Below, one piece after another: positions 5,625 to 59,563 of a DNA stretch of 64,000 bases (the first letter of the stretch is position 1; each line of letters starts with the position of its first letter). A program made the translations under genes and the position numbers. Below the pieces are notes generated by a model, which saw only the letters and a list, made by a program, of their open reading frames with translations, was not told the DNA's origin and did not search any database. Source of the stretch: Tissierellales bacterium (GTDB taxonomy: Bacteria; Bacillota; Clostridia; Tissierellales; DATGTQ01). The DNA is taken from contig DATGTQ010000130.1 of the NCBI GenBank assembly GCA_035301805.1, positions 300-64,299 of the forward strand, read 5' to 3'.

Positions 5625-5656
5625 ATATAATATGTAAGGAGGTGTATACCAATATA

Positions 5657-6883: not shown

Positions 6884-6912
6884 AATATAAATTAGAATTA
6901 TTTTTAATAAAA

Positions 6913-6943
6913 ATAGGGGAATGAAAATTCTCCTATCTTTTTT
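6913..6943 (+). terminator. Rho-independent terminator
   Basis: ataggggaat-gaaa-attctcctat stem-loop followed by cttttttg. Confidence 0.7.
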
Positions 6944-7039
6944 GTATATTTTTTTGTAAACAATCAGGTCTAATGGTATAATGTTTAAGAAGATCTAATA
7001 AAATAGATTACATGATGCTTAATTGTCGAGGTGAAGAGG

Positions 7040-9886: not shown

Positions 9887-9979
9887 TTTAGCTCCTCCTT
9901 CCTTAATAGTTTATAATATTATTAAAATAAGTGCAATATGGTTTATTTATATTTTGTACAAAGTTTTTTAATAAATACT

Positions 9980-10007
9980 TTGACTTTATATTTCCTTGTA
10001 TTATAAT
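9980..10007 (+). promoter_or_regulatory. SigA-type promoter of uvrBA
   Basis: TTGACT (9980-9985), 16-nt spacer, TATAAT (10002-10007). Confidence 0.65.
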
Positions 10008-43670: not shown

Positions 43671-43805
43671 GTTATAGTGAAAATTAGAATACAAAATGAC
43701 ATTTTTGGAATTTATAAATTATATAGATTTCAAGATTGTAATAAGTGTAAGTATATGGCAAAATGTTTATACAGATATAAAGAAGAAAAAGATATAGATA
43801 AAAAT

Positions 43806-43865
43806 AAAGAGTGCTTAGGAATTTGCTTCTTAAAAGAAGTTAGTTCCTAAGCACTCTTTATTTTA
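43806..43865 (+). terminator. Long near-perfect hairpin (orphan terminator-like element)
   Basis: aaagagtgcttaggaa (43806-43821) pairs perfectly with ttcctaagcactcttt (43844-43859). There is an inner cttctt-aa-aagaag stem, and attttag follows. No annotated gene ends here. Confidence 0.5.
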
Positions 43866-44048: not shown

Positions 44049-45014
44049 ATGAAGGAAAGTAATAGAAAAAGATTAAGTTTAATAATGGTTTTAGTATTAG
44101 TATTGTCTCTTTCTTTAATTGGATGTTCAAAAGATGCAGGAACAAATGAGGTTAAAGATCTCAATAAGAATGTAGAAGAAAATATTAAATTTGAAGACGA
44201 TACATATATTGTAGATGCTGAGTGGTTAAAGGAAAACATGGAGAAGGAAAATTTATTAATATTAGATGCTAGGGGGCAAGAAGCTTATGATAAGGGACAT
44301 ATACCAGGTGCAATAGCTGTTATGTGGCAACAGTTTGCTGATATTGATGGAACTCCAGGAGAAGATCTAAACTGGGGAACAGTCCTTGAGCCAGACACTT
44401 TATCCCAAAGGTTTTCTGAAGTTGGGATAGACGAGGATAAAGAGATAGTAGTTTATACCAACACAAAAAAAGGTTGGGGAGAAGATGGAAGAATTGTATG
44501 GATGCTTAGAAGATCAGGATTGGATAATACAAAAATCTTAGACGGTGGATGGGACTATTGGAAATCAGAAGGCTATGAGGTATCAAAGGAACCAGTAGAA
44601 CCAACGTCTACAAATTTTAAAGTAAAAGAGTTAGACTCTAAAACAAATATAGAAACTGAAGAATTAGTTAATAAAGTAGACGATGTAGTTATTATAGATG
44701 TAAGAGAAAAAGATGAGTATGAAGGAGCTACAAAGTATGGAGAAGTAAGAGGTGGACATTTACCAGGAGCAATCAATATACCATTTAATAGCTTTTTAGA
44801 GAAAAACGGTACAATAAAAAATCCAGAAGAAATTAAAGCCATACTTGAAGAAAATGGAGTTAATAAAGATGATGAAATAGTTACATATTGTACAGCGGGT
44901 ATTCGTTCAGCTCATATGCAGATAGTCTTAACTATGTTAGGATATGATAATGTACAGAACTTTGATGCAAGTTTTCATGCATGGGCCGGGAGCCCAGAGC
45001 TTGAATTAGAGTAA
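44049..45014 (+). CDS. Exported tandem-rhodanese sulfurtransferase lipoprotein (YnjE/thiosulfate sulfurtransferase-like)
   Basis: Lipobox LIGC. Two rhodanese domains: the first is inactive-type, and the second carries the catalytic loop YCTAGIRSAH (C-x2-G-x-R). AAGGAGG SD. Confidence 0.8.
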   Translation: MKESNRKRLSLIMVLVLVLSLSLIGCSKDAGTNEVKDLNKNVEENIKFEDDTYIVDAEWLKENMEKENLLILDARGQEAYDKGHIPGAIAVMWQQFADIDGTPGEDLNWGTVLEPDTLSQRFSEVGIDEDKEIVVYTNTKKGWGEDGRIVWMLRRSGLDNTKILDGGWDYWKSEGYEVSKEPVEPTSTNFKVKELDSKTNIETEELVNKVDDVVIIDVREKDEYEGATKYGEVRGGHLPGAINIPFNSFLEKNGTIKNPEEIKAILEENGVNKDDEIVTYCTAGIRSAHMQIVLTMLGYDNVQNFDASFHAWAGSPELELE

Positions 45015-45035
45015 TTAAAAGGAGAGATGTATAAA

Positions 45036-45479
45036 ATGAAAAAATTTACTGTAGCAGTAATTGCATTGTTAACATTGACACTATTAATGACAGGCTGTGG
45101 AAAAAAAGAAACGGATGGAGTTGCTGACGAATTTAAATATCATACTGCAGAAGAAGTAAAAGAATTTATTGAAAAAGATGAGGATATGATTCTATTAGAT
45201 ATTCAACCTGAAGAAGATTGGGACAAACACCATATTAAAGGAGCTATAGCAACTTATGCTTTCCCTGCAGATGATGATGAAGGCAAAGCAAAGTTAGATG
45301 AAGTTCTACCTACTCTTGAAGAATCAGAAGATAAGATAATAATAATATGCCCTCGTGGTGGTGGTGGAGCTGAAAATACCCATAAATACTTAGTAGAAAA
45401 AGGTATAAAAGAAGATCGTCTTTATATATTAGAAAAAGGTCAAGAGGGTTGGCCATATGATGAACTTTTAGAAGATTAA
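45036..45479 (+). CDS. Exported single-domain rhodanese-like lipoprotein
   Basis: Lipobox MTGC. Rhodanese fold (LLDIQPEEDWDKHHIKGA) with the Cys loop ICPRGGGGAE. ATG 45036 lies 9 nt after AAGGAGAG. Confidence 0.75.
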   Translation: MKKFTVAVIALLTLTLLMTGCGKKETDGVADEFKYHTAEEVKEFIEKDEDMILLDIQPEEDWDKHHIKGAIATYAFPADDDEGKAKLDEVLPTLEESEDKIIIICPRGGGGAENTHKYLVEKGIKEDRLYILEKGQEGWPYDELLED

Positions 45480-45500
45480 AGTAAATTTAAGAAAGGCTGA

Positions 45501-46232
45501 TTGATAAGATTGAGAAAGTTAAGCAAATCTGTATGGATTAAAATAGGTGTTCTTGTGGTAGTTGCATTAATATGTATATTTGTAACACCAGTTAGAAATG
45601 GAATTAAAAACATTGTCCATTTATTTAGTCTTTTAGATGTGGAAGCTGTAAAAGAATATATACTATCTTTTGGGATATGGGCGCCAGTAATATCTTTTTT
45701 TCTAATGATCTTCCAGTCAATAGCTGCGCCACTTCCTGCATTTTTAATAACCTTTGCAAACGCTAGTTTATTTGGTTGGGTAAAAGGAGCAATATTATCC
45801 TGGTCTAGTGCAATGGCAGGTGCGGCACTGTGTTTCTATATTTCAAGGATTTATGGCCGGAATGCAGCTGAAAAGTTTACTAGTAAATTTGCCCTAGATG
45901 AAATAGAAAAGTTTTTTGAAAGATATGGTGATTATGCAATTCTTATAGCAAGATTATTACCTTTCATATCTTTTGATATTGTAAGTTATGCAGCAGGTCT
46001 TACCCCTATGAATTTTTGGTCATTTTTCTGGGCTACAGGATTAGGACAACTTCCCGCAACTTTGATCTATTCTTATGTTGGGGGAATGCTTACAGGAGGA
46101 GTAAAAAAATTTGTAACTGGACTTCTAATTCTATTTTCATTAAGTGCTTTAATATTCTTAATGAAGAAAATTTACAATGATAGAACTGCCAAAAAAGAAA
46201 CGAAGATGAAAACTGCTGAAAAGAATCAGTAA
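45501..46232 (+). CDS. TVP38/TMEM64 (DedA superfamily, SNARE-associated PF09335-like) membrane protein
   Basis: ...FFLMIFQSIAAPLPAFLITFANASLFG...RLLPFISFDIVSYAAGLTPMNFWSF... is the typical TVP38 core. The start (TTG 45501 or 45510) is uncertain. Confidence 0.7.
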   Translation: MIRLRKLSKSVWIKIGVLVVVALICIFVTPVRNGIKNIVHLFSLLDVEAVKEYILSFGIWAPVISFFLMIFQSIAAPLPAFLITFANASLFGWVKGAILSWSSAMAGAALCFYISRIYGRNAAEKFTSKFALDEIEKFFERYGDYAILIARLLPFISFDIVSYAAGLTPMNFWSFFWATGLGQLPATLIYSYVGGMLTGGVKKFVTGLLILFSLSALIFLMKKIYNDRTAKKETKMKTAEKNQ

Positions 46233-46240
46233 TTTAATAA

Positions 46241-46273
46241 AAAGGGGTTGTTTCTAGTAGAGACAATCCTTTT
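46241..46273 (+). terminator. Possible weak internal terminator or attenuator hairpin
   Basis: aaaggggttgtttc-tagta-gagacaatcctttt forms a 14-bp stem including 3 G-U pairs, with only a short U tract. Confidence 0.3.
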
Positions 46274-46293
46274 AGCTTGATAAGGGTGAAAAT

Positions 46294-47445
46294 ATGGAAA
46301 AGATTAATATTGAAAAAAGAATCTTAGATAGAATCAACATAGAGTATGAGAAATGTATAGGCTGTAAACTATGTATGAAAGGCTGTCCTATGCTAGATGA
46401 GTTTTGTGATTCTCCAAAAGAATTATTAGGGAAATTGATAGGAGAAGGAAAAGTAGATTACAAACTGCCTTATTCATGTTTACTTTGTGGTTATTGTACA
46501 AAAGTTTGTCCTAAAGATGTGGACCTAAAAAAATTATTTTTCCAGTTGAGAAATAATATTATTAAGGAATCAAATGGAGAACCTCCTAAAGAATTAGGTT
46601 ATGCATCGATAAAATTTCATCAAAAAAATAGTTTCTCCAAATTATTTAGCACAGATATAAAAGGTATGGATAATGATTCTGATATTATCTTTTTTCCCGG
46701 CTGTAGCTTAATGGCTTATAGCCCTAAAATAGTTGAGAAAACCTATGAATATTTAAAAGATAATATACCTGGTATGGGAATTTATATAAAATGTTGTGGT
46801 AAACCAACTTTATTTATGGGAGACGAAAAAAGGTTTATTAAATATTATGACATAATAAAGGAAGATTTTGAAAAAAATAGTGTGAAACGAGTAATAACAG
46901 CCTGCCCTAATTGTTTTAATACTATAAAAAATACTAGCGAGAATGTGAAAGTAATATCTCTATGGGATGTTATATCAGAAGTTGGAGTTCCTAAAAATGT
47001 AAAGGGGAAAGGGGAAAATGTTGAACTAACTTTTTCTATACATGATCCATGCCCTACAAGAGATGAAAGAAAGACTCACAATGCCATTAGAAATATTTTA
47101 GATGGAATAGGGCTTAAGTATAAAGAAAATGAGTTTTCTGGAGAAGAAACTCTTTGCTGTGGAGCAGGGGGGATGGTTTTTTTAGCTAACGAATCCATAG
47201 CTCTAGGTCAAAAGAAGAAAAGAGCTACTGAATTAGAAGAAGAGCATATAATAACCTATTGTGAAGAATGTGTTCAGTCTATGAAAAGTGGGGGTAAAAA
47301 ATCCTTTCATGTTCTAGATTTATTATTCCATGAGGAAATATATGAAAGCTTCAATCAAAAAGATGTAAGTTTTATAGGTAAATGGATAAATAGGTATAAG
47401 GGAAGGGCAAGGATAAAATGGAAAAATCAAGACAAGGAGTATTAA
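46294..47445 (+). CDS. (Fe-S)-binding protein: two 4Fe-4S ferredoxin motifs plus two CCG domains (HdrD/GlpC/LutA-like)
   Basis: CIGCKLCMKGCP and CLLCGYCTKVCP. CCG-type cysteines follow: FFPGCSL...IKCCGKP and HDPCP...TLCCGAGG. Confidence 0.75.
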   Translation: MEKINIEKRILDRINIEYEKCIGCKLCMKGCPMLDEFCDSPKELLGKLIGEGKVDYKLPYSCLLCGYCTKVCPKDVDLKKLFFQLRNNIIKESNGEPPKELGYASIKFHQKNSFSKLFSTDIKGMDNDSDIIFFPGCSLMAYSPKIVEKTYEYLKDNIPGMGIYIKCCGKPTLFMGDEKRFIKYYDIIKEDFEKNSVKRVITACPNCFNTIKNTSENVKVISLWDVISEVGVPKNVKGKGENVELTFSIHDPCPTRDERKTHNAIRNILDGIGLKYKENEFSGEETLCCGAGGMVFLANESIALGQKKKRATELEEEHIITYCEECVQSMKSGGKKSFHVLDLLFHEEIYESFNQKDVSFIGKWINRYKGRARIKWKNQDKEY

Positions 47446-48110
47446 AATATGTATTTGCTTTTATTATAATAGGGGTAATAATTTTTATTCTTAATAAATT
47501 TAATATTTTTAAAGGCTATGGGGCTAATGAAATGAAAGAATATGTAAAATCTTTTGGGGTATGGGCTCCTATAATTTATTTAGGAATACTTTCTATACTT
47601 CCTCTTCTTTTATTTCCAGACTCTGTAATGGTTATGGCTGGGGGAATGATTTTTGGTTTGTATAAAGGAACACTATTAACCTTATTGGGCTCTTTAATTG
47701 GGGGTACTGTGGCTTTTTGCATTTCTAGAAATCTAGGACAAAATGCAGTTAAGAAAATTATAAAAAAGGATTTAGTTTTGTTTAGAGAACAATCTGAGAA
47801 AAATGGATTTATTATAATATTACTTCTTAGACTTGTGCCCCTTTTTCCTTTTAAAGTAGTGAGTTATAGTGCTGGACTATCAGATATAAAATATAAAGAT
47901 TTCTTATTAGCTACTGCAATAGGAGCATTACCAGGAATGATTGTATATACCAATGTAGGAGATAAGTCTACTGCTATAGGTAGTACTAGCTTTTATATTT
48001 CCATAGGTCTATTATTATTGCTTATAGTTGTATCTCTATGGTTAAAAAAGAAATTTTCAACAAAAGACATAGGAGGGATTGAAAGTGAAGAGAAAGATGT
48101 TCAAAAATAG
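47418..48110 (+). CDS. TVP38/TMEM64 (DedA superfamily) membrane protein, second copy
   Basis: ...LLLFPDSVMVMAGGMIFG...RLVPLFPFKVVSYSAGLSDIKYKDF... Its start overlaps the end of the Fe-S gene by 28 nt. Confidence 0.7.
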   Translation: MEKSRQGVLKYVFAFIIIGVIIFILNKFNIFKGYGANEMKEYVKSFGVWAPIIYLGILSILPLLLFPDSVMVMAGGMIFGLYKGTLLTLLGSLIGGTVAFCISRNLGQNAVKKIIKKDLVLFREQSEKNGFIIILLLRLVPLFPFKVVSYSAGLSDIKYKDFLLATAIGALPGMIVYTNVGDKSTAIGSTSFYISIGLLLLLIVVSLWLKKKFSTKDIGGIESEEKDVQK

Positions 48111-49335
48111 TTTAATACTTTTATTAATAGGAATTTTAGCATTAAATTTAGTTGGTTGTGGGAAAAAAGAAATAAATGATGAAGATGTATTAGAAAAGGA
48201 TTGGGATGAAATATTAGAAGTTGCAAAAGGGACTACTGTTAATTTTTATGGTTGGGGTGGTAGTCAACAATATAATTCTTGGGTTGACGGATATTTATCA
48301 GACAAGCTTAAAGAAGAATATGATATAACCCTTAATAGAGTAGGTATGGACATAGATGAGATACTAAATAAATTATTAAATGAGAAGCAAGTAGATGCAA
48401 AAGATGGAGATATAGATATGGTTTGGATAAATGGGGAAAACTTTTTTACTGCAAAAGAAAACGACTTATTATTTGGTCCTTTTACAGACAAGCTTCCAAA
48501 CTTTGAAAAATATTTAGATGTGGATTCTGTTGAAGTTAAATATGACTTTGGTTATCCCGTGGAAGGTTATGAATCTCCTTATGGAAAAGCTCAATTTGTG
48601 TTGGTATGTGATAGTGAGAAAGTAGAGGAACCTCCTAAGGGTCATGAAGAATTATTCAATTGGGCTAAAGAAAACCCTGGCAAATTTACTTATCCTGCAT
48701 TACCTGATTTTACAGGTTCTGTATTTGTCAGAAATATTATATGTGACATAGTCGGTTATGAACAATTTATGGATATGGAAGCAGACGAAGAAACAGTAAG
48801 AGAAGCTATTGAACCTGCAATGGATTATTTAAAAGAATTAAAACCTTATTTATGGAAGGAAGGAAAAACTTATCCAGCTGACTCTGCATTATTAGATAAT
48901 ATGTATGCAGATGGAGAAGTAGTAATGACTATGACTTACAATCCTAATTCTCCTTCAGGGAAAATAGTTACAGGAGAGTATCCAGATTCTACAAAAACTT
49001 TTGTATTTGACAAAGGAACTGTAGGAAACACTCATTTTATAGGGATACCTTTTAATGCACAGAATAAAGCTGGAGCTATGGCAGCTATAGATTATATATT
49101 AAATGTTGAAGTTCAAGCATCAAAGTATGTGCCTGGAAACTGGGGGGATTTACCAGTTGTGGACAATAATAAATTAAGTGCTGAAGAAAAAGAAATTTTA
49201 GAATCAGTAGATCTAGGTAAAGCAACTCTTCCTCAAGATGTATTAGCAGAACATAGGATACCAGAAATACCAGCTGATTTAGTACCTATTATAGAAAAAA
49301 TTTGGATGGAAACTATTCCAGGCGAGAGTGATTAG
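48085..49335 (+). CDS. ABC transporter substrate-binding lipoprotein, YnjB (COG4134) family
   Basis: Lipobox LVGC. Colinear with E. coli YnjB as I remember it: FYGWGGS, DMVWINGENF, FTYPALPDFTGSVF, LKPYLWKEGKTYP, GNTHFIGIP, NWGD. GTG 48085 lies 7 nt after AGGAGGG and overlaps the upstream gene. Confidence 0.75.
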   Translation: MKRKMFKNSLILLLIGILALNLVGCGKKEINDEDVLEKDWDEILEVAKGTTVNFYGWGGSQQYNSWVDGYLSDKLKEEYDITLNRVGMDIDEILNKLLNEKQVDAKDGDIDMVWINGENFFTAKENDLLFGPFTDKLPNFEKYLDVDSVEVKYDFGYPVEGYESPYGKAQFVLVCDSEKVEEPPKGHEELFNWAKENPGKFTYPALPDFTGSVFVRNIICDIVGYEQFMDMEADEETVREAIEPAMDYLKELKPYLWKEGKTYPADSALLDNMYADGEVVMTMTYNPNSPSGKIVTGEYPDSTKTFVFDKGTVGNTHFIGIPFNAQNKAGAMAAIDYILNVEVQASKYVPGNWGDLPVVDNNKLSAEEKEILESVDLGKATLPQDVLAEHRIPEIPADLVPIIEKIWMETIPGESD

Positions 49336-50201
49336 TGTTGAAGGGCAAAATAAAACCTTATATTTTAATAACTCCTATTATGATTATTATATTAGGAATA
49401 TTTGTTACAGGTTTAATTATGGGATTTATTCAAAGCTTAGGTCATTTCAAAGCTATAGGACTTAATGGATTTACACTGAAGTACTATAAAGAAGTGTTAA
49501 CAAGTAAAGATTTTTTATCTTCTTTAGGCTTTAGTTTTTATATATCAATAGTTTCTTCAGTAATTGCTATAGTATTAGGAATACTTTTATCTTATTCTAT
49601 ATTCAGGATTGATAGTAAGAGAAAAACTATAGACTTTATGTATAAGTTTCCCATCATAGTACCTCATATTGTGGCTGTATTACTTGTATATAATATATTG
49701 GTTCAAAATGGAATACTTCCTAGAATTTTATATTTTATTGGTTTAATAAAGGAGCCCTTTCAATTTCCATCCCTTCTATATGAGAAGAATGGAGTTGGAA
49801 TAATCATAGCTTACCTGTGGAAGGAGGTACCTTTTGTGGCTATGGTTACTTATACAATTTTAGGCAATTTAAGTTATAATCTTTCTGAAGTAGCCCTGAA
49901 TCTTGGGGCTACTAATAGACAGGTGTTTTTTCACGTATTTCTTCCATTAATAATGCCATCAGTATTGTCAGCTTTTATAATAATATTTGCATTTTCTTTT
50001 GGAGCTTATGAGGTGCCCTTTCTTTTGGGAGCTACATCTCCAAAAGCATTATCTGTTAAAGCTTTTATAGAATATAGTAATCCTGATTTAACTAATAGAC
50101 CTTATGCTATGGTTATAAATATGATACTGACCTTTTTATCTTTTATTTTAGTAGGGTTCTATCAAAAGACTTTTGAGTTAATTTCTGAATATAAGGGGTG
50201 A
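49335..50201 (+). CDS. ABC transporter permease (YnjC N-half-like)
   Basis: Six predicted TMs and an EAA-type loop (...EVALNLGATNRQVFFHVFLPLIMP...). Its start abuts the SBP stop. Confidence 0.75.
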   Translation: MLKGKIKPYILITPIMIIILGIFVTGLIMGFIQSLGHFKAIGLNGFTLKYYKEVLTSKDFLSSLGFSFYISIVSSVIAIVLGILLSYSIFRIDSKRKTIDFMYKFPIIVPHIVAVLLVYNILVQNGILPRILYFIGLIKEPFQFPSLLYEKNGVGIIIAYLWKEVPFVAMVTYTILGNLSYNLSEVALNLGATNRQVFFHVFLPLIMPSVLSAFIIIFAFSFGAYEVPFLLGATSPKALSVKAFIEYSNPDLTNRPYAMVINMILTFLSFILVGFYQKTFELISEYKG

Positions 50202-50205
50202 TTAT

Positions 50206-51015
50206 TTGGATAACAAAAATTCATTTATATTTAAAATAATAACTTATATTTTCCTAATATTTTTAGTGTTGCCCCTTATAGTCATTGTTATCTGGAGTTT
50301 CACTAAAAATTGGCCTTGGCCAAATTTAATGCCAAAAGAATTTGGACTAAGAGGATGGAAGCATTTTTTTAATCCTTCTAGTAGGTCATTAGAAACACTT
50401 TTAAGTAGCATTTGGTTGTCTTTAGTCGTAACTATTATTGCTTTAATAATAAGCATTCCAGCTGGAAAGGCTTTAGGAATATATGATTTTAAAGGTAAAA
50501 AGGTAGTAGAACTTTTAATATTTGCACCAGTAATGGTTCCTACTGTTGCAATAGCTATGGGGATACATCTTTCCTTTTTAAAAGTAGGTCTTGCAAATAC
50601 TTTCCAAGGTGTTGTTCTAATTCATCTAATTCCTTGTATTCCCTATAGCGTAAGAATACTACAAAATGTCTTTGAAATAGTAGGAGATTCATTAGATATG
50701 CAAGCTAAGGTATTAGGGGCTAGTCCATTACAAGTCTTTATTCATGTAACTCTACCCTTAATAGCACCGGGAATAGTTTCAGCAGGTAGTATGGTTTTTA
50801 TAGTGTCTTTTAGTCAATATTTTTTAACGCTTTTAATTGGTGGAGGAAAAATTGTAACATTTTCTATGATTATGTTTCCCTTTATTCAAAGTGGAGATAG
50901 AATGATGGGGGCTGTTTATAGTATTGTATTTATTTTAGCCACTCTTATATGTTTAGGTATAATGGAAAAGGCTATTAAACATTTTTATAAAAGTGGAAAC
51001 TTCTTTTTTAGCTAG
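50206..51015 (+). CDS. ABC transporter permease (YnjC C-half-like)
   Basis: Polytopic, with an EAA-type loop (...MQAKVLGASPLQVFIHVTLPLIAP...). TTG start after AAGGGGTGA. Confidence 0.75.
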   Translation: MDNKNSFIFKIITYIFLIFLVLPLIVIVIWSFTKNWPWPNLMPKEFGLRGWKHFFNPSSRSLETLLSSIWLSLVVTIIALIISIPAGKALGIYDFKGKKVVELLIFAPVMVPTVAIAMGIHLSFLKVGLANTFQGVVLIHLIPCIPYSVRILQNVFEIVGDSLDMQAKVLGASPLQVFIHVTLPLIAPGIVSAGSMVFIVSFSQYFLTLLIGGGKIVTFSMIMFPFIQSGDRMMGAVYSIVFILATLICLGIMEKAIKHFYKSGNFFFS

Positions 51016-51047
51016 TTTAAATGAATTTAAGTTAAAGGAGTATTTAT

Positions 51048-52064
51048 ATGTCTAGAATTGATTTGCAAAATATATCTAAAAGCTTTGACAAAAAGAGGGT
51101 ATTAGATAATATTAATCTTGTAGTTCCAGAAGGGAAGTTAATATCCTTACTTGGACCCTCTGGATGTGGGAAAACGACAACTTTAAAAATTATTGCTGGT
51201 TTGTTAAATCCAGATGAAGGAGATATATTGCTTGAAGGTAGTTCCGTATTAAAGGTTCCAGTAGAGAAAAGGGGAGCTGTAATAGTGTTTCAAGATTATC
51301 TATTATTTCCTCATTTAAATGTGGGAGATAATATTGGTTTTGGTCTTAAAATGGCAAAGGTAGATAAAGAAATAATAAGAAAACAAGTTCAAAAAATGTT
51401 AAGATTAGTCCAATTAGAAGGATATGAAAAAAGAATGCCCCATGAATTGTCTGGAGGTCAGAAACAAAGAGTTGCTTTAGCTAGAGCATTAGCCATAGAG
51501 CCAAAAGTACTTCTTCTTGATGAACCATTTTCTAATTTGGATAGGAAGCTTAGAGAAGATATGAGAGATTTTATATTAAACTTACAAAGAAGGCTTAATA
51601 TTACAACTGTATTAGTCACTCATGATAAAGAGGAGGCTTTGATGACTTCAGATAAAATAGCAGTTATGTTAGATGGGAAAATAAAACAATCTGGTACACC
51701 TTTAGAATTATATGAAAAGCCATATTGTCCAGAAGTAGCAAATTTTCTTGGTGAAAAAAACTACATTAAAGGTAATATAATAGATGGGTATTTTATAAGT
51801 AATATTTTTAAAATTAAAACTGATGTTCCTAATGAAAAGAATGTAAAGGCTATGATAAAACCTGAAGAAATAAAATTATTACCCCTGAGTGGGACAAATA
51901 TAAAAGGTAAGGTAATAGTAAAGAGATATGCAGGAGATAGAATATATTATACAGTTAAAATAGGAAATGTTGAATTGAAGTCAATATCTGACTCCAATAC
52001 AATATTTGAACCAGGAGATGAAGTTTCTATTTTAATAGATTATGACAAGATGATATTTTTTTAA
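51048..52064 (+). CDS. ABC transporter ATP-binding protein (PotA/FbpC-type with C-terminal TOBE-like domain)
   Basis: GPSGCGKTT, LSGGQKQRVALARAL, LLLDEPFSNLD, THD, plus a C-terminal beta-rich domain of about 100 aa. Confidence 0.85.
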   Translation: MSRIDLQNISKSFDKKRVLDNINLVVPEGKLISLLGPSGCGKTTTLKIIAGLLNPDEGDILLEGSSVLKVPVEKRGAVIVFQDYLLFPHLNVGDNIGFGLKMAKVDKEIIRKQVQKMLRLVQLEGYEKRMPHELSGGQKQRVALARALAIEPKVLLLDEPFSNLDRKLREDMRDFILNLQRRLNITTVLVTHDKEEALMTSDKIAVMLDGKIKQSGTPLELYEKPYCPEVANFLGEKNYIKGNIIDGYFISNIFKIKTDVPNEKNVKAMIKPEEIKLLPLSGTNIKGKVIVKRYAGDRIYYTVKIGNVELKSISDSNTIFEPGDEVSILIDYDKMIFF

Positions 52065-52081
52065 AATAAGGAGCCATTAAT

Positions 52082-52756
52082 ATGATTTCTATAATTATAC
52101 CAATTTTAAATGAAGAAGGAACAATAGAAAAGACTTTAGATCAGCTGAGCAAGCTAGAAGGAGATAAAGAAATTATAGTTGTAGACGGTGGTAGTACCGA
52201 TAATACAGTTGAAATTGCAAATAAGTATTGTACTGTAATAAATAGTCCTAAGGGAAGGGCAAGACAGATGAATTGTGGTGCCCAAATAGCAAAGGGAAAT
52301 ATATTATGGTTTTTCCATTCTGATTCTAAAGCATCTGTAGATTCTTTAAACAGCATAAAAAATACTATTGATGATGGATATATCGGTGGAGGATTTCAGT
52401 TATATTTCTATGATTTAGATACCTTATTTATGAAATTCATTGCTAAGACATCAAATATAAGAGCTAAATATTTTCATTTGTTTTTTGGAGATCAAGGTAT
52501 ATTTGTAAGAAAAGATGTATTTGAATATATGAATGGATATAAGGATATAGAGCTTATGGAAGACTTTGACTTTTCTAGAAGATTTCATAAACTAGGAAAG
52601 ACTAAAATGACAGAATCTAAAATTGGCACATCGGCTAGAAGGTTCAACTCTGGTGGTCAACTAAAGACTTTTTTCCTTATGAAAAAGATACAATTATTGT
52701 ATATATTAGGAACACCACCTTCAAAACTAAATCAGATGTATAGAGAGGTGAGATAA
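52082..52756 (+). CDS. Family 2 glycosyltransferase-like protein (resembles TIGR04283, 'rSAM/selenodomain-associated transferase 2')
   Basis: ISIIIPILNEE...EIIVVDGGSTDNTVEIA...SPKGRARQMNCGAQIAKGNILWFFHSDS. The GRA.QMN.GA motif is what I remember as characteristic of that subfamily. Confidence 0.65.
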   Translation: MISIIIPILNEEGTIEKTLDQLSKLEGDKEIIVVDGGSTDNTVEIANKYCTVINSPKGRARQMNCGAQIAKGNILWFFHSDSKASVDSLNSIKNTIDDGYIGGGFQLYFYDLDTLFMKFIAKTSNIRAKYFHLFFGDQGIFVRKDVFEYMNGYKDIELMEDFDFSRRFHKLGKTKMTESKIGTSARRFNSGGQLKTFFLMKKIQLLYILGTPPSKLNQMYREVR

Positions 52757-53440
52757 GTGAATGCTTTAATTCTTATGACTAGGATACCGATACCCGGCAA
52801 GACAAAAACTAGACTAATGGATATATTAACAGGAATTGAATGTGCAGAAATTCATAAGGCTTTTTTATTAGATCTATTTAATCTATTCAATTATTTGAAA
52901 GATGATGTAGATATATACCTTACCTATACACCAGAAGATTCTTTTCACATTTTCGGAGATATGATTCCAAACTATATTAAAACCTTTCCCCAAAAAGGTG
53001 GAGACTTAGGTGAAAAAATGAGAAATGCTATGGAAGAAGTTTTAGACAAAGGATATGACTCGGTAATATTAATAGGCTCCGATATACCTAATATTCAACC
53101 AGATGACATATATAAGGCTTTTGATTTATTAGAAGAGAATGATATTTGTTTAGGACCGAGTTTTGATGGAGGATATTATTTGATTGGTATGAAAAGATTA
53201 TACTCTGTAATATTTGATAATGATTTAAAATGGGGTAAAAAATCTGTTCTTGAAAGGACTGTTGATATAGCAAATAGGGAGGGGCTTTCAGTAGGTTTAG
53301 CTATCAAGCATATGGATATTGATACAAAAGAAGACTTATTAAAGTTTTCTGAAGAAATGGAAAAGAATAATAAAAATATGATTATTCCACAAAATACCTT
53401 GGAATATATTCAGAATATGGAGTGGATTCATTATGCTTAA
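52757..53440 (+). CDS. DUF2064 / CofC-like nucleotidyltransferase-fold protein (resembles TIGR04282, 'rSAM/selenodomain-associated transferase 1')
   Basis: LILMTRIPIPGKTKTRLMDIL N-terminus, QKGGDLGEKM, LIGSDIPNI, and GPSFDGGYYLIG are the DUF2064 hallmarks. GTG start directly after the GT2 stop, preceded by GAGAGGTGA. Confidence 0.7.
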   Translation: MNALILMTRIPIPGKTKTRLMDILTGIECAEIHKAFLLDLFNLFNYLKDDVDIYLTYTPEDSFHIFGDMIPNYIKTFPQKGGDLGEKMRNAMEEVLDKGYDSVILIGSDIPNIQPDDIYKAFDLLEENDICLGPSFDGGYYLIGMKRLYSVIFDNDLKWGKKSVLERTVDIANREGLSVGLAIKHMDIDTKEDLLKFSEEMEKNNKNMIIPQNTLEYIQNMEWIHYA

Positions 53441-54446
53441 AGAGAATCTAATAAATAAAATTAATGAATATATTAATAAATATAGGAATAAAAATGTTTT
53501 AAATATTAATGTTGGAGAAGATTATAATGTTTCATTTTTAGCTCAAGGAGAGTATAATATAAATTTTATTCTAGAATCTAATTTAAATAAAAATGTTTTT
53601 AGAGTTAATACTGGGAGTCAATTAGAATTAAAAAATCAAATAAAATATGAATATTGTGCATTAAAATCATTAGAGGTATCCGGTGTTACGCCAAAAGTAT
53701 ATTACGTAGATGATACTAAGAATTATTTTGATTATGGAATTCTAATAATGGAATTTTTAGAAGGAAGACCATTAGAGTATAATAAAGACCTTAAAAAGGC
53801 AGGAAAAATATTTTCTAAAATACACTCTATTGACTTAAATAAAATAAATAATGATAACTTTATTGTAGAGTCAAATATTTTTACAGAGAGAGTTAAAGAA
53901 GCAGAAAGACTATTAGATAAATTTTGGGATTCATCTATTGTAAATATAGAATTAAAAAGATATTTTGATAGATTTCTTAATTGGGCTATAAAGAATAAAG
54001 CAAAGGAAAAATATTTTATTGAAAATAAATGGCATGTAATAAATAATACAGAGGTTAATTCTCATAATTTTATTATAGGCGATAATGGAAATTATCTAAT
54101 AGACTGGGAGAAACCGGTTATTAGTGATCCTTGTCAAGATTTAACTCAATTTTTAGCGCCTACTACTACTTTATGGAGGGCTGATTACTTATTAAGTAAG
54201 GAAGAGGAAGAAAGTTTTTTTAAAGAATATATAGATGGCTTGGGAGGAGAAGATAGAAATATTAGGGATAGAGTCTATATGTATAATCCATATTTATATT
54301 TAAGAGCATTGTCTTGGTGTGCATATGCATATATAGAATATCATGATCCAAACAAAGAAATTAAGAATATGGATACTTTTAATAAAGTAAAAGAATATTT
54401 GCAAATAGATTTTATGGATGATCTTTTAAAAGATTATTTGGTTTAA
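53433..54446 (+). CDS. Phosphotransferase-family (APH / choline-kinase-like) small-molecule kinase
   Basis: The N-lobe (FLAQGEYNINFIL...VFRVN) and C-lobe (...NFIIGDNGNYLIDWEKPVISDPCQDLTQFL) match the APH/ChoK fold. Its start overlaps the upstream stop by 8 nt. Confidence 0.65.
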   Translation: MLKENLINKINEYINKYRNKNVLNINVGEDYNVSFLAQGEYNINFILESNLNKNVFRVNTGSQLELKNQIKYEYCALKSLEVSGVTPKVYYVDDTKNYFDYGILIMEFLEGRPLEYNKDLKKAGKIFSKIHSIDLNKINNDNFIVESNIFTERVKEAERLLDKFWDSSIVNIELKRYFDRFLNWAIKNKAKEKYFIENKWHVINNTEVNSHNFIIGDNGNYLIDWEKPVISDPCQDLTQFLAPTTTLWRADYLLSKEEEESFFKEYIDGLGGEDRNIRDRVYMYNPYLYLRALSWCAYAYIEYHDPNKEIKNMDTFNKVKEYLQIDFMDDLLKDYLV

Positions 54447-54511
54447 TGATACTACAACTAATTTTTATGACCTTGAAACATATAAAAAGTGGATATAAAA
54501 GGAGATTATAA

Positions 54512-55099
54512 ATGTTAGATACTTATGGGAGAAAATATATAAGCGCTCTAATTAAAAATGTTGCAGACTTTTTTATCAAATTAAACTTTACAGCAAATCA
54601 AATTACTAAATTAGCCTTTATTATTGGTATATTCTCAGGAGTATTTGTCTATTTTGACAAAGCTGTAATGGCTGTAGTAGTTCTTTGGGTATCTGGGCTC
54701 TTAGATGCAGTAGATGGAGAAATTGCTCGACGACAAAAAGATACTACAGATTGGGGAACAGTTATGGATATAACTTTTGATAGGATAGTAGAAATTTCTG
54801 TAATAATAGGATTAGGATTAAGATATACAGATTCAAGAATCCATTTGTTATTTTTATCATGTTCAATAATTATTTCAATGACTATTTTTTTAACTGTAGG
54901 TGCTCTTTCTGAAAAAAAGAGTAGTAAGTCTTTCTATTATCAGGCTGGTATTATGGAAAGAACAGAAGGGTTTATTATGTTTACATTAATGATACTATTT
55001 AGTGGTAAATTAAGTCTATTTACGGTAATATACGCAGTATTGGTGTTTATAACAGCTATGCAAAGATTAGCAGAGGCAAAGGATATACTTGAAGATTAA
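54512..55099 (+). CDS. CDP-alcohol phosphotransferase family membrane protein
   Basis: The complete signature D-x2-DG-x2-AR-x8-G-x3-D-x3-D is present in DAVDGEIARRQKDTTDWGTVMDITFDR. 195 aa with several TMs. Confidence 0.85.
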   Translation: MLDTYGRKYISALIKNVADFFIKLNFTANQITKLAFIIGIFSGVFVYFDKAVMAVVVLWVSGLLDAVDGEIARRQKDTTDWGTVMDITFDRIVEISVIIGLGLRYTDSRIHLLFLSCSIIISMTIFLTVGALSEKKSSKSFYYQAGIMERTEGFIMFTLMILFSGKLSLFTVIYAVLVFITAMQRLAEAKDILED

Positions 55100-56532: not shown

Positions 56533-56560
56533 GACAAGTTAGGACTTATTTATAAATGAA

Positions 56561-56665
56561 TATAAATTTAGGGGTGCTTATATTGATAGGCTGAGATAGA
56601 AATGTTATTTCTGACTCTGTGAACCTGATTTGGGTAATTCCAATGGAGGGATATATTAATTTATA
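56561..56665 (+). promoter_or_regulatory. TPP (THI-box) riboswitch aptamer
   Basis: GGGGTGC (56571), CTGAGA (56591), and ACTCTGTGAACCTGATTTGGGTAATTCCAATGGAGGGA (56614-56651) match the conserved THI-element cores (GGGGUGC...CUGAGA...ACCUGAU.UGG.UAAU.CCA...GGGA). A P1 candidate pairs tataaatt (56561-56568) with aatttata (56658-56665). Confidence 0.85.
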
Positions 56666-56675
56666 TAGTGATGAT

Positions 56676-56845: not shown

Positions 56846-57088
56846 ATGAATAATTCTATTTTATATGAAAATATTTATTCCGCCCTTTTAAGGTTAGCAG
56901 AGAAAAATAGTTTAAGGAGGGTAAATAATATAAAGATTTTGGTAAATAAAAATATTGATATTAGTGAAAAAGACCTTCTTAAATATCTAAAGATTGAAAA
57001 TAATATTTTATTTGGAGAATGGACATCCATAGATATTGAAAAAGATGAAATAGAAATAATTAAAGCAGTTATAAAAGTTGTAGATTAA
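56846..57088 (+). CDS. Hypothetical protein (80 aa), first ORF downstream of the TPP riboswitch
   Basis: ATG after GGAGGC. No family recognised. It shows a loose resemblance to the N-terminal domain of HypA-like proteins but has no metal-binding motif. Confidence 0.5.
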   Translation: MNNSILYENIYSALLRLAEKNSLRRVNNIKILVNKNIDISEKDLLKYLKIENNILFGEWTSIDIEKDEIEIIKAVIKVVD

Positions 57089-57149
57089 CTCTGATTTTAT
57101 GATATAATTAACAATGTTATATACTGAAGATATAAAAGGAGGAGAACCT

Positions 57150-57692
57150 ATGATAAAGACAATAAAGAAGAAATTTGACATGGTTGAAATGCTATATTAC
57201 TACTGGCAAGTGACTAGTGAAAGAGGTAAAGTAGGAGAGGCTTATATAATAGATGTAGCAAACAGATTAGAAATGAAGTACATTTATGATGAAGAATTTA
57301 ATGAAGAAGAAGCAAGAAAAGTATTAAGTTGTATATCTAATAGTGAGCCTTTAAACAGTAAATCTCGTAAGGCTAGGAAATTCTGGAACAATAATATGTG
57401 GATGTTAGAGGATTTAGAATATACAGATATGATGATAACTCCTGTAAAAACCTTAAATTTAGATTCTTTAATTGATAAAATAAATACAAGGATTGAAAAT
57501 CCTAAATATGAGGAAGTAGAAGTTTTGTTTATACCGTCTACAGATGAAGAATATCTAATTAAAGAAAATAAATTGATAATTAATTTCTTTAGAGTTAAAC
57601 CAGATTTATATGAAGAGGGAAAAGTAACTATAGGAGAACTACCTTTTATTGATTTTATTGAAGAAAAATTAATTGAGTTACTTGGTGAATAA
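57150..57692 (+). CDS. Hypothetical protein (180 aa)
   Basis: ATG 57150 follows AAAGGAGGAG. Soluble and acidic. No family recognised. Confidence 0.55.
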   Translation: MIKTIKKKFDMVEMLYYYWQVTSERGKVGEAYIIDVANRLEMKYIYDEEFNEEEARKVLSCISNSEPLNSKSRKARKFWNNNMWMLEDLEYTDMMITPVKTLNLDSLIDKINTRIENPKYEEVEVLFIPSTDEEYLIKENKLIINFFRVKPDLYEEGKVTIGELPFIDFIEEKLIELLGE

Positions 57693-57755: not shown

Positions 57756-57808
57756 TAATGGTATAATTAAGTAGTATTGCCAAAAAGGTAATAAAGGAGT
57801 TGTTCATT

Positions 57809-59563
57809 TTGAAATTAGAAACATTATTATTTAATACTGTGAAGTATTTAAAAGAAAGCCTTAAACGTTTTCCAGTAACAATATTAACTTCAACTGCTTT
57901 AGTTATTATGCTTATAATAACTGGGGAACAATCTTCTACTCTAAATAGTGAAACTTTAAGTATTTTAGAAAGAATAAATATGGTAATAGGTCTTGGTATA
58001 CCATTATCTTTGTGTATTAAATTAGTATTTGAAAGAAAGAATGGAAAAAATCAATATAAATTATTAGGGCATATTTTAGGTGCAGGATTTTTGATACTAT
58101 ATTATTTTTATTTTTTATCAGAAATTAATATGGTAAGTCGTACAAGATATATTGCTATAAGTTTATTTTTATATATAGCATTTATGTATATACCATGGTT
58201 AGGAAATAAAAAGGATTATGAATATTATGTTGTAAAAGTTCTAGGAAGTTTCTTTATTACAGCTATTTATTCATTTGTATTGTATATTGGATTTACAGCT
58301 ATAATTTTTTCTATTGATAAACTTTTTTTAATAAATATAGAAGGAAGATTATATTATTATATGTTTTTAGTTATAGTTGGAATTTTTGCACCATCATATT
58401 TTTTAGCAAAACTACCAAATAATAATGAGAATTTTTCTAATAACAAACTACCAAAAGCATTTAAAATATTACTTTTATATATAATTATACCGCTAATTGT
58501 TATATACACTGCTATACTCTACGCATATTTTATAAAAATAATAGTTACGAGGAATTGGCCTATTAATTTAATATCTCATTTAGTACTATGGTATTCAATT
58601 GTAACAGTAGGAGTTATTTTCTTTATTACACCAATAATTAAAGAAGATAAAGTGGCTGAATACTTTGTAAAATGGTTTCCCAATATTATTATTCCGATTA
58701 TTTTAATGATGTTTTCATCTATGTATATTAGGATAAATGCCTATGGGATAACAGAAAACAGATATTTTGTGTTAGTACTTGGCTTATGGGTATTTGCCAT
58801 GATGATATATTTTGGATTTAGAAAAAGATTTAGAAATATAATAGTACCAATTTCAATGTCTATTTTAGTATTAATTTCAGTAATAGGACCTTTAAGTAGT
58901 TATTCAATATCTAAATATAGTCAAAATAAAAGACTGGAAAGGATTCTTATAAGAAATAATATGATTGAAGATAATAAAATTATAAAATCTAATTCCAGCA
59001 TTTCTTCAGAAGATAAAGCAGAAATAAGTAGCATATTAGATTATTTTAAAAATAATCATGATGTAAATAATATAAAATATCTTTCTAGTGATTTTAAAAT
59101 TAATGATATGGAGAGGGTTTTTGGTTTTTCTTATACCTATGATGTTCAAGGAGAAGATATGAATAGCTATTTTTATTATGATAATGATAAAATAGGAAAT
59201 GTATTAGAGGTACGAGGATTTGATTATTTTGCAAATATTAATAACTATGTTGATGAAGTAAAAATATCTACAGATACAGTACTAAAATTTGATTTTGATA
59301 AGTTTACATTCAAAATTATAGATAAAGAAAATGATATATATGAAAGAAATTTTTATGATTTTGTAGAGATAATTAATAGTAAATATGAAGGTAAAAATGG
59401 AAGTAAAGACATTGTAGATCCAAAAGATTTAATTTTTAGTGATGAAAATAAAAAAGTTAAGGTTTTGTTTATCATTAATCATATATCGGGTTTGAAAGAT
59501 GGCTCTCAAAGAGGAACTCAAATTCAAGATGTAGAATTTAATGTGCTAATAAAAATTAAATAA
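57809..59563 (+). CDS. Large polytopic membrane protein with soluble C-terminal domain (DUF4153-like)
   Basis: About 10-12 hydrophobic helices over the first 370 aa, then a soluble domain of about 200 aa. The TTG at 57809 lies 9 nt after AAGGAG. The family name is from memory only. Confidence 0.55.
   Translation: MKLETLLFNTVKYLKESLKRFPVTILTSTALVIMLIITGEQSSTLNSETLSILERINMVIGLGIPLSLCIKLVFERKNGKNQYKLLGHILGAGFLILYYFYFLSEINMVSRTRYIAISLFLYIAFMYIPWLGNKKDYEYYVVKVLGSFFITAIYSFVLYIGFTAIIFSIDKLFLINIEGRLYYYMFLVIVGIFAPSYFLAKLPNNNENFSNNKLPKAFKILLLYIIIPLIVIYTAILYAYFIKIIVTRNWPINLISHLVLWYSIVTVGVIFFITPIIKEDKVAEYFVKWFPNIIIPIILMMFSSMYIRINAYGITENRYFVLVLGLWVFAMMIYFGFRKRFRNIIVPISMSILVLISVIGPLSSYSISKYSQNKRLERILIRNNMIEDNKIIKSNSSISSEDKAEISSILDYFKNNHDVNNIKYLSSDFKINDMERVFGFSYTYDVQGEDMNSYFYYDNDKIGNVLEVRGFDYFANINNYVDEVKISTDTVLKFDFDKFTFKIIDKENDIYERNFYDFVEIINSKYEGKNGSKDIVDPKDLIFSDENKKVKVLFIINHISGLKDGSQRGTQIQDVEFNVLIKIK

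Follow-up and report, generated by a model that had tools for sequence, protein, structure and literature searches.

In a 64,000-nucleotide (nt) stretch of a Tissierellales genome (contig DATGTQ010000130.1; the whole stretch is called the window here), four tightly packed genes at 52,082–55,099 encode a GT2 glycosyltransferase, a DUF2064 protein, an APH/choline-kinase-fold kinase and a CDP-alcohol phosphatidyltransferase. A sequence-only reading of this DNA had taken the quartet as a free-standing cassette for the activation and transfer of a phospholipid head group. The quartet is instead the 3′ end of a co-directional array of 13 genes (44,049–55,099). Because of the survey counts and of the separated and swapped modules described below, we read it as two plug-in modules on a shared base of upstream genes rather than as one pathway. 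The base is, by homology and synteny, the Firmicute counterpart of Escherichia coli ydjXYZ-ynjABCDE; the GT2–DUF2064–kinase trio would activate a sugar and the last gene, of the YnjF type, would encode a separate phospholipid synthase. For this two-module mechanism as a whole, we see an even balance between right and wrong.

The open reading frame (ORF) listing places the four genes exactly where they had been described, all on the + strand and separated by 0 nt, an 8-nt overlap and 65 nt, and the quoted motifs (GRARQMNCGA, PGKTKTRL and the complete CDP-alcohol signature) are likewise exact. No intergenic distance in the 13-gene array exceeds 65 nt, and the array is bounded by gaps of 432 nt upstream and 836 nt downstream. 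The gene order of the quartet recurs in unrelated genomes and metagenomes, an arrangement far beyond chance. An Rfam scan returned no riboswitch or leader controlling the operon, its sole above-threshold match being a riboswitch downstream of the array, and a promoter and terminator scan of the operon performed no better than on shuffled sequence.

Locus surveys were anchored on either side of the quartet. For the transferase, one genome per species (185,579 species genomes) yielded 481 relatives, and 80 of these loci were compared; for the kinase, whose family has 1,202 relatives, 77 metagenome and genome loci were compared. Neighbors were counted within 8 kb of the transferase anchor, and YnjF-type genes near the kinase were likewise counted within 8 kb. 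Transferase-anchored loci contain a DedA protein (70/80), a YnjB-type substrate-binding protein (SBP) and ATPase (65/80) and a redox partner (75/80), the last being a MerA/Lpd-like FAD disulfide reductase (PNDR) in 47, a CCG Fe-S protein in 24 and YdjY in 4. A TIGR03169-type FAD oxidoreductase accompanies 38 of the 80 and a rhodanese 12, while the GT2–DUF2064–kinase trio is present in only 3. Around the kinase, DUF2064 (53/77), GT2 (50/77) and the full trio (48/77) were the most frequent neighbors, together with an ABC ATPase (42/77), rhodanese (33/77), IU-nucleoside hydrolase (32/77), DedA (30/77) and CCG protein (28/77). A YnjF-type transferase was located in 1 of the 77 loci, farther off in locus L097 and also in L089, a near-identical relative of the window operon (96%).

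In all three genomic contexts examined, the kinase is the last gene of an SBP-permease-permease-ATPase-GT2-DUF2064-kinase series, with YdjY, DedA, rhodanese, YeeE/TusA, Pyr_redox plus CCG and inosine-uridine nucleoside hydrolase genes nearby and no CDP-alcohol transferase in these three contexts. Clostridium tagluense carries the transferase module and the trio at separate loci, and in Sporanaerobacter, whose SBP is 81% identical to that of the window, the ATPase gene is followed directly by the YnjF-type gene with no trio. The earlier proposal of one chain from kinase through nucleotidyl transfer to CDP-alcohol phosphotransfer is therefore not supported, as the transferase family occurs without the trio in 77/80 genomes and the trio without the transferase in nearly all kinase-anchored loci. 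Of the proposed linkage, the GT2/DUF2064/kinase part is conserved (complete in 48/77 loci), whereas the CDP-alcohol transferase seldom joins it. The same 48 loci, with the DUF2064–GT2 fusions described below, support the trio as strongly conserved and functionally linked. Co-occurrence of the full quartet in several lineages with differing orders suggests a functional relationship via the base rather than chance. The conserved partners of both modules are upstream genes that lay outside the earlier reading, namely the YnjBCD-type ABC importer, DedA, rhodanese and Fe-S or FAD reductases.

The transferase carries the complete signature D65-x2-D68-G69-x2-A72-R73-x8-G82-x3-D86-x3-D90, with all eight residues invariant in 19 sequences. 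Its best curated matches are the archaetidylinositol phosphate (AIP) synthase model NF040950 (102.4 bits, cut-off 180) and the phosphatidylinositol phosphate (PIP) synthase model NF045883 (67.6 bits, cut-off 170), both below cut-off, and it returned no NCBIfam match to PgsA (at E 1e-3 or better), PssA, Pcs or Cls. A hidden Markov model (HMM) of the transferase family scored E. coli YnjF at 80.4 bits over residues 2–194 and E. coli PgsA at 18.5 bits over the signature region only. Identity to YnjF is 30% over the full length, and both proteins contain a KSFYY motif, which in the window family is part of its own invariant KSFYYQAG insert. The structural model (predicted local distance difference test score, pLDDT, 82) has an N-terminal interfacial helix and six transmembrane helices. 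With Foldseek, it aligned to Mycobacterium tuberculosis PIP synthase (PIPS), DIPP synthase (DIPPS), AF2299 and Rs (Renibacterium) PIPS at template modeling (TM) scores of 0.62–0.74; Staphylococcus aureus PgsA ranked 20th (TM 0.60) and PSS reached TM 0.4. Profile matches in the Protein Data Bank (PDB) are also PIPS and DIPPS, and the arginines of the AER-x-E and Q-R motifs align with PIPS residues that we take to be the acceptor-phosphate contacts in PIPS structures. E. coli YnjF lacks the arginine of AER-x-E.

PgsA was accordingly rejected as the identity of the 54,512 product, given the missing NCBIfam match, the HMM score of 18.5 bits and the fold rank. This agrees with the sequence-only reading, which had set the protein apart from PgsA, PssA and Cls and had named grouping with ordinary PgsA as the contrary outcome; family HMM and fold searches place YnjF and PIPS nearer. 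Its argument that 195 residues are short for PgsA fails, as E. coli PgsA has 182. In sequence and modeled fold, the transferase is a PIP-synthase-like member of the YnjF family and not PgsA, and it is predicted to move a phosphatidyl group from CDP-diacylglycerol onto an alcohol that is polar and probably anionic. Its closest characterized relatives use CDP-diacylglycerol or CDP-archaeol, not a CDP-alcohol supplied by a neighboring gene. While PIP and AIP synthases and DIPP synthase (PDB 6H53, 5D92 and 4MND) share the complete signature and give the best family, profile and fold matches, the window enzyme falls below both curated cut-offs, has its own insert and has no inositol-phosphate synthase gene nearby. 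Our literature searches on ynjF, ynjB and ydjXYZ found no functional study.

Pfam and NCBIfam scores uphold the family assignments made earlier for all four proteins, and it also holds that none of the four genes has a known product. The GT2 protein (PF00535, 84.8 bits) matches TIGR04283 over positions 1–221 of 221 and contains the GRARQMNCGA motif. In the DUF2064 protein (PF09837, 106.5 bits; CofC model TIGR03552, weak at 48.5 bits), PGKTKTRL occupies residues 13–20, and a solved structure of unknown function, PDB 3CGX, matches at E 4e-30. Both families, TIGR04283 and TIGR04282, carry the NCBI name ‘arsenosugar biosynthesis glycosyltransferases’; the window pair, whose genes abut with a gap of 0 nt, exceeds both curated cut-offs. 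The two families are fused into single proteins of 442–445 residues in L148, L151 and L152, as in the L148 fusion at 8,669–9,997 (TIGR04282, 195 bits; TIGR04283, 222 bits). Literature searches on DUF2064 and the TIGR0428x families found no functional study. The arsenosugar label and the E. coli ydjXYZ-ynjABCDEF counterpart were both absent from the sequence-only reading; overall, its trio is real and its product not known, whereas its Kennedy-type four-step chain was not supported and the operon context had been overlooked.

The kinase has a weak but significant APH match and no equivalog. Its AF2 model (pLDDT 82) adopts a generic APH/ChoK fold (Foldseek E 4e-9, TM 0.70 to 3dxp), and the fold search does not separate sugar, choline and antibiotic kinases; its neighbors include the anomeric sugar kinases NahK and MtnK. 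The catalytic loop is the invariant N204-N205-T206-E207-V-N-S-H-N212, with Glu in place of the catalytic Asp of the canonical APH/ChoK H-x-D-x4-N, and the D224-W-E metal motif is kept and invariant. The catalytic-loop region of the model is of low confidence. No NCBIfam match to MtnK was obtained, and 2pun ranked 48th in the fold search (TMq 0.51); an analogous, MtnK-like activity would be compatible with the lack of that match. Sequence comparison with solved structures gave nothing specific, and a plasmid collection contained no homolog of the kinase.

The base genes were compared with E. coli K-12, where the order is ydjX (DedA)-ydjY-ydjZ (DedA)-ynjA (AhpD-like)-ynjB (SBP)-ynjC (permease)-ynjD (ATPase)-ynjE (rhodanese)-ynjF (b1750–b1758). 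Six families of this cluster are matched by window proteins at 22–53% identity (blastp E 3e-81 to 6e-18; Table 1). To our knowledge, the E. coli cluster has no assigned function, and the rhodanese YnjE is its only studied member. The two clusters also differ. E. coli has YdjY and the AhpD-like YnjA, whereas the window has an HdrD-like CCG Fe-S protein in their stead and no YdjY homolog; YdjY is present in some relatives. The window rhodaneses stand first and are lipoproteins, its permease is encoded by two genes rather than the single ynjC, its YnjF-type gene is co-directional with the operon, unlike in E. coli, and the E. coli cluster is without the GT2/DUF2064/kinase trio. The SBP showed only weak matches to PotD and MalE in sequence and profile searches of solved structures, with no clue to its ligand. 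In the Sporanaerobacter sp. locus L003 (~4,800–7,340), some 2.5 kb containing ORFs of 526 and 253 residues are inserted between the SBP and permease genes of an operon orthologous to that of the window, and may be a mobile element.

Table 1 Genes of the co-directional array, numbered by window position
Feature	Position	Strand	Basis
Two-domain rhodanese lipoprotein, operon gene 1, distantly YnjE-like	44049..45014	+	PF00581 x2, 136.5 bits; signal peptide and lipobox Cys LIGC; 22% identity to E. coli YnjE, E 6e-18; active-site loop CTAGIRS
Single-domain rhodanese lipoprotein	45027..45479	+	PF00581 46.4 bits; lipobox MTGC; found again in related loci
TVP38/DedA membrane protein, YdjZ-like	45501..46232	+	PF09335 100.4 bits; 53% identity over 229 aa to E. 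coli YdjZ, E 3e-81
Candidate disulfide reductase, an Fe-S protein (two 4Fe-4S ferredoxin motifs, two HdrB-type CCG domains)	46294..47445	+	PF02754 x2 and Fer4 families; matches C-terminal part of NF045663, 271 bits, under cut-off 530
Second TVP38/DedA membrane protein, YdjX-like	47418..48110	+	PF09335 105.4 bits; 30% identity to YdjX, E 5e-27
YnjB-type substrate-binding lipoprotein (SBP) of ABC importer	48079..49335	+	NF008633 (PRK11622) 495.6 bits, cut-off 203; lipobox LVGC; 35% identity to E. coli YnjB, E 1e-73
ABC importer permease 1, one half of YnjC	49335..50201	+	PF00528; weak YnjC match
ABC importer permease 2, other half of YnjC	50206..51015	+	PF00528; YnjC match E 9e-10
ABC importer ATPase with C-terminal TOBE domain, YnjD-like	51048..52064	+	PF00005 and PF08402; 40% identity to YnjD
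GT2 glycosyltransferase, TIGR04283, 224 aa, no transmembrane segment	52082..52756	+	TIGR04283 243.5 bits, cut-off 182
DUF2064 protein, CofC/MobA-like fold, putative sugar-1-phosphate nucleotidylyltransferase, TIGR04282, 227 aa	52757..53440	+	TIGR04282 191.6 bits, cut-off 134
APH/choline-kinase-fold small-molecule kinase, variant catalytic loop N-x-E-x4-N, 337 aa	53433..54446	+	PF01636 31.4 bits, cut-off 23.2
YnjF-family CDP-alcohol phosphatidyltransferase, PIP-synthase-like, last operon gene, 195 aa	54512..55099	+	PF01066 57.6 bits, cut-off 22

Across the related loci, the constant core is a TVP38/DedA protein with a disulfide-reductase-type protein, the two being fused into one protein in Proteobacteria. 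Rhodanese, AhpD-like, DUF547, C-GCAxxG, YeeE/TusA, MsrA/B and thioredoxin/CcdA neighbors are frequent additions, a composition that suggests membrane redox chemistry of thiols, selenols or metalloids. A Legionella plasmid (L178) carries the order YiiX-TVP38-FAD oxidoreductase-YnjF-like-DUF547-AhpD-like. This array is the skeleton of the Acinetobacter ArsS locus described next, with the YnjF-like gene occupying the GT2/DUF2064 position, a swap that lends weight to the picture of a common core bearing alternative plug-ins. In Planococcus spp. (seven loci), arsR and arsC, often with arsD, come after a PNDR-DedA-SBP-permease-ATPase series and share its strand; this link to arsenic resistance is confined to the one genus.

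Further contexts of the trio connect it to nucleoside cleavage and to ArsS. The DUF2064 homolog search returned close Clostridial relatives only, and distant contexts were taken from annotated plasmids. On a Burkholderia thailandensis plasmid, an MTA (methylthioadenosine) phosphorylase-TIGR04283-TIGR04282-TIGR03169 oxidoreductase series lies with a fused TVP38(DedA)/FAD oxidoreductase (PNDR), and the TIGR04283 gene adjoining the phosphorylase encodes a protein 37% identical over its full length to the window GT2. An Acinetobacter portensis plasmid (L176) carries ArsS-TVP38/FAD oxidoreductase-DUF547-TIGR04283-TIGR04282-ArsM-like methyltransferase and, further on, MTA phosphorylase, and a Methylobacterium plasmid carries TIGR04282 with a GT-C (GT87), a radical-SAM protein and a GT2. 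L176 is an NDM-1 plasmid and L178 is from Legionella pneumophila; the DedA/FAD-oxidoreductase core also travels on conjugative or mobilizable plasmids of pathogens. In the metagenome loci L118, L148 and L151, genuine ArsS (414–442 bits, cut-off 300) adjoins the same kinase family as in the window, with DedA, rhodanese, CCG, C-GCAxxG and TIGR04169 AhpD-like proteins as neighbors; in L148 and L151, ArsS and the TIGR04169 protein share the locus with the DUF2064–GT2 fusion. The partners that recur with GT2 and DUF2064 are either MTA phosphorylase or a nucleoside hydrolase plus this kinase. The recurring partner is thus an enzyme that strips the base from (5′-substituted) adenosine.

ArsS adenosylates dimethylarsenite to 5′-deoxy-5′-dimethylarsinoyladenosine (PMC13598754). 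Our literature search found only ArsM and ArsS characterized, with no enzymes assigned to the path from this nucleoside to arsenosugars and arsenosugar phospholipids. Neither protein was detected in the 64-kb window: for ArsS, there is no ORF of at least 150 residues with a CxxxCxxC motif and no tblastn match to two ArsS proteins, and for ArsM, no tblastn match to the Acinetobacter ArsM-like protein.

ArsS/ArsM arsenosugar clusters have the same curated GT2 and DUF2064 families and the same DedA plus disulfide-reductase partnership as the window; rhodanese, AhpD-like and C-GCAxxG proteins are common to ArsS clusters and window-type clusters, and the kinase family is shared in L118, L148 and L151. 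In contrast, radical-SAM ArsS and ArsM are both missing from the window, which has an ABC importer in place of synthesis of the adenosyl compound. Where proteobacterial ArsS clusters use MTA phosphorylase, the window has a kinase (joined by a hydrolase in relatives), and it adds the YnjF-type transferase. The locus is best viewed as a variant of the systems that activate 5-substituted ribose in ArsS clusters, with no radical-SAM enzyme close by, fed by an ABC importer and grafted on a ydj/ynj-type base along with a YnjF-type phospholipid synthase.

The mycobacterial capping pathway for MTX (methylthioxylose) would follow the same logic, from a 5-substituted ribose-1-phosphate through a nucleotide sugar to a GT2. 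In the account of Angala et al. 2017, MTA is reportedly converted to methylthioribose (MTR)-1-phosphate and then to a nucleotide sugar, from which MtxS (GT2) forms decaprenyl-P-MTX for MtxT. MTA phosphorylase adjoins TIGR04283/TIGR04282 in Burkholderia and a GT-C (GT87) adjoins TIGR04282 in Methylobacterium; the window, however, contains no epimerase and no GT-C. AmgK/MurU and NahK represent salvage pairs of an anomeric sugar kinase and a nucleotidylyltransferase. Like the window, these systems combine an APH-fold kinase, a nucleotidylyltransferase-fold protein and a glycosyltransferase, and NahK is among the fold neighbors of the window kinase, but no sequence-level relationship was detected and DUF2064 resembles CofC/MobA, not the classical sugar-1-phosphate nucleotidylyltransferases. 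MtxS has been described as the maker of the lipid donor (PMC12088412).

In the mechanism that we favor, the trio (52,082–54,446) would form a sugar salvage and activation line. The APH-fold kinase would produce a sugar-1-phosphate, the sugar most likely being a 5-deoxy-5-substituted ribose that derives from cleavage of a nucleoside or riboside. This cleavage would be performed by the nucleoside hydrolase in related loci; in proteobacterial versions, MTA phosphorylase would replace both hydrolase and kinase and give the ribose-1-phosphate directly. DUF2064 would convert the sugar-1-phosphate to a nucleoside diphosphate (NDP)-sugar, from which the inverting GT2 would transfer the sugar to an acceptor, for example a glycerol-type alcohol or a lipid phosphate, to form a β-riboside. 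The 5-substituent may be dimethylarsinoyl or methylthio. Separately, the YnjF-type enzyme (54,512–55,099) would use CDP-diacylglycerol to phosphatidylate a polar, probably anionic alcohol, yielding a minor phospholipid. The DedA proteins could move the membrane-associated conjugates of both modules to the outer leaflet, where the rhodanese lipoproteins reside. The relevant element may be arsenic, sulfur (as methylthio) or selenium.

Several observations weigh against this mechanism. Nucleoside hydrolase, MTA phosphorylase, ArsS and ArsM are all missing from the window, so that the source of the sugar is not visible locally and would be either the ABC importer or genes in other parts of the genome. 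For the kinase, there is no specific MTR kinase match, the fold match is generic and the catalytic loop deviates from HxDxxxxN. ArsS is the sole member of these families with a biochemically tested step. The roles of the ABC importer, rhodaneses and Fe-S protein are proposed from family names. Lastly, YnjF-type genes adjoin the kinase in at least four lineages with varied arrangements (window/L089, L071, L054/L080, L097 and L142), and a metabolic hand-over between the trio and transferase modules could therefore still take place.

In the Kennedy-type pathway, which corresponds to the sequence-only reading, the kinase would phosphorylate an alcohol, DUF2064 would convert it to a CDP- or NDP-alcohol, the 54,512 enzyme would transfer the phospho-alcohol part to lipid and the GT2 would glycosylate the product. 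The four genes are adjacent and probably co-translated, CofC-like enzymes make NDP-linked nonsugar phosphoesters, in line with the TIGR03552 match, and the quartet lies in one operon in Tissierellales, Fusobacteria and two more metagenomic lineages, in differing orders. We nevertheless consider this pathway very improbable: kinase and DUF2064 are missing from 77/80 YnjF-type loci, as is YnjF from nearly all trio loci, the fusion partner of DUF2064 is the GT2 and not the CDP-alcohol transferase, the nearest characterized transferase relatives (PIPS and AIPS) take a CDP-lipid and an alcohol phosphate, and the other conserved trio partners are nucleoside-cleaving enzymes. That the two modules usually occur apart could also suggest a chance juxtaposition with no shared function, which is scarcely credible in view of operon-like gene spacing, of the synteny counts and of the repeated, independent association of each module with the same base genes across Firmicutes, Fusobacteria, Synergistota and Proteobacteria.

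The remaining alternatives concern what the modules carry. As an arsenic-specific special case of the two-module mechanism, the locus would take up and reduce arsenicals or take up an arsenosugar or arsenonucleoside; 5-deoxy-5-dimethylarsinoyl-ribose would be built by kinase, DUF2064 and GT2 into a glycerol arsenosugar and, by the YnjF-type enzyme, into an arsenosugar phospholipid. GT2 and DUF2064 both exceed the NCBI ‘arsenosugar biosynthesis’ cut-offs, but these names rest on gene neighborhood rather than assays. Genuine ArsS and ArsM are found together with members of the kinase family, DedA, CCG or PNDR, rhodanese, AhpD-like (TIGR04169) and C-GCAxxG proteins, whereas the 64-kb window lacks ArsS and ArsM, about 45 of 48 long kinase-anchored loci have neither within 10 kb, and ArsS was in no case seen with a YnjF-type neighbor. 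Many of the carriers come from marine or sediment habitats, Planococcus places arsR-arsC(-arsD) on the same strand after PNDR-DedA-ABC, and an inverting GT2 acting on α-NDP-ribose would yield a β-riboside of the arsenosugar type. On the other hand, E. coli K-12 possesses the base cluster and YnjF and is not known for arsenolipids, and MTA phosphorylase and MsrA/MsrB neighbors would suit a methylthio substituent equally. We hold the arsenic-specific case as possible, if on the unlikely side. A still more specific sequence of late (arseno)ribosyl-lipid steps would link both modules: a 5′-substituted nucleoside, imported or endogenous, would lose its base, pass through kinase and DUF2064 and be transferred by the GT2 to glycerol; the YnjF-type enzyme would phosphatidylate the resulting glycoside to a lipid resembling an arsenosugar phospholipid, which DedA would flip outward for the rhodaneses to act on. 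This is a speculative proposal that we regard as improbable.

Sulfur or selenium trafficking, or redox chemistry of the envelope, would have the base import and reduce a chalcogen or shuttle reducing power while the modules build a lipid-anchored thioether, thiol or sugar carrier, one example being a methylthio-sugar lipid that serves as a sacrificial antioxidant, a role put forward for mycobacterial MTX. The rhodanese lipoproteins, the YeeE/TusA genes that replace DedA in Crassaminicella-type loci, the TIGR03169 (‘N-terminal to SelD’) oxidoreductase in 38/80 loci and in Burkholderia, the MerA/Lpd-like PNDR in 47/80 loci and the MsrA/MsrB, thioredoxin, CcdA and peroxiredoxin neighbors are consistent with this reading, as are a GrdB-like candidate selenoprotein with a UxxC motif in Niallia and the activation of E. 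coli ydjXYZ-ynjABCD and ynjE by FNR (PMC3688515). However, SelD was not found in 2.7 Mb of related loci (~170), save for E. coli K-12, where its presence is probably fortuitous; many ‘seleno’ family names denote Sec residues in proteins and not a selenium substrate; and the model is too unspecific to predict a product. We rate it as improbable too. A selenium utilization trait in particular was downgraded given the missing SelD and the absence of the system from selenium reviews. The literature likewise yielded no functional study that joins selenium with rhodanese and DedA.

Two observations bear on selenium in these loci. In E. coli K-12 (L083 and L173; 1,833,401–1,848,008), selD (b1764) lies ~5.5 kb beyond ynjF, which is probably a coincidence. 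In Niallia sp. (L086, 3,639–4,397), within a YdjY-DedA-...-ABC-GT2-DUF2064-kinase cluster, a GrdB-like ORF (PF07355) contains an in-frame TGA in the context G-U-Y-I-C (UxxC). The gene is called split at the TGA codon in a second assembly, and its product is a candidate small selenoprotein.

The components of the locus already bear family names in public annotation, and no member beyond ArsS has a tested function. Returning to the two-module mechanism, the locus and its relatives provide a coherent candidate set for the steps after ArsS in arsenosugar and arsenolipid synthesis, namely base removal, anomeric phosphorylation, nucleotidyl transfer and glycosyl transfer, with nucleoside hydrolase or MTA phosphorylase, a new APH-fold kinase family with an N-x-E loop, DUF2064 and the TIGR04283 GT2 as the respective candidates. 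The comparison also ties nine E. coli y-genes (ydjXYZ-ynjABCDEF) to arsenosugar-type clusters through a core of TVP38/DedA, disulfide reductase and rhodanese that is widely conserved and has never been explained, with YnjF-type phospholipid synthases as an alternative plug-in on the same core. If the ribosyl-lipid steps were true, they would give the first function for YnjF and for the whole E. coli ydj-ynj cluster and would name candidate genes for every step after ArsS. Be the substituent arsenic, sulfur or selenium, the outcome would annotate thousands of genes.

Outside the array, a thiamine pyrophosphate (TPP) riboswitch (RF00059) lies at 56,560–56,669 on the + strand (64.4 bits, gathering score 54.3). 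Thiamine-related import, suggested by a weak thiamine-kinase match, ThiQ/ThiP similarity and this riboswitch, was rejected as the main explanation because the riboswitch belongs to a separate downstream unit, which in L089 is divided from the operon by an ORF of 1,142 codons. The two ORFs that follow the riboswitch (56,846–57,088 and 57,114–57,692; 80 and 192 residues) are without a Pfam match and could be unrecognized thiamine-related genes; a DUF4153 membrane protein is encoded next (57,800–59,563). Within the 432-nt gap upstream of the array, a hairpin of ~60 nt (43,802–43,863), which drew microRNA-family matches that are all below threshold, could either end transcription of the preceding gene or have a regulatory role.

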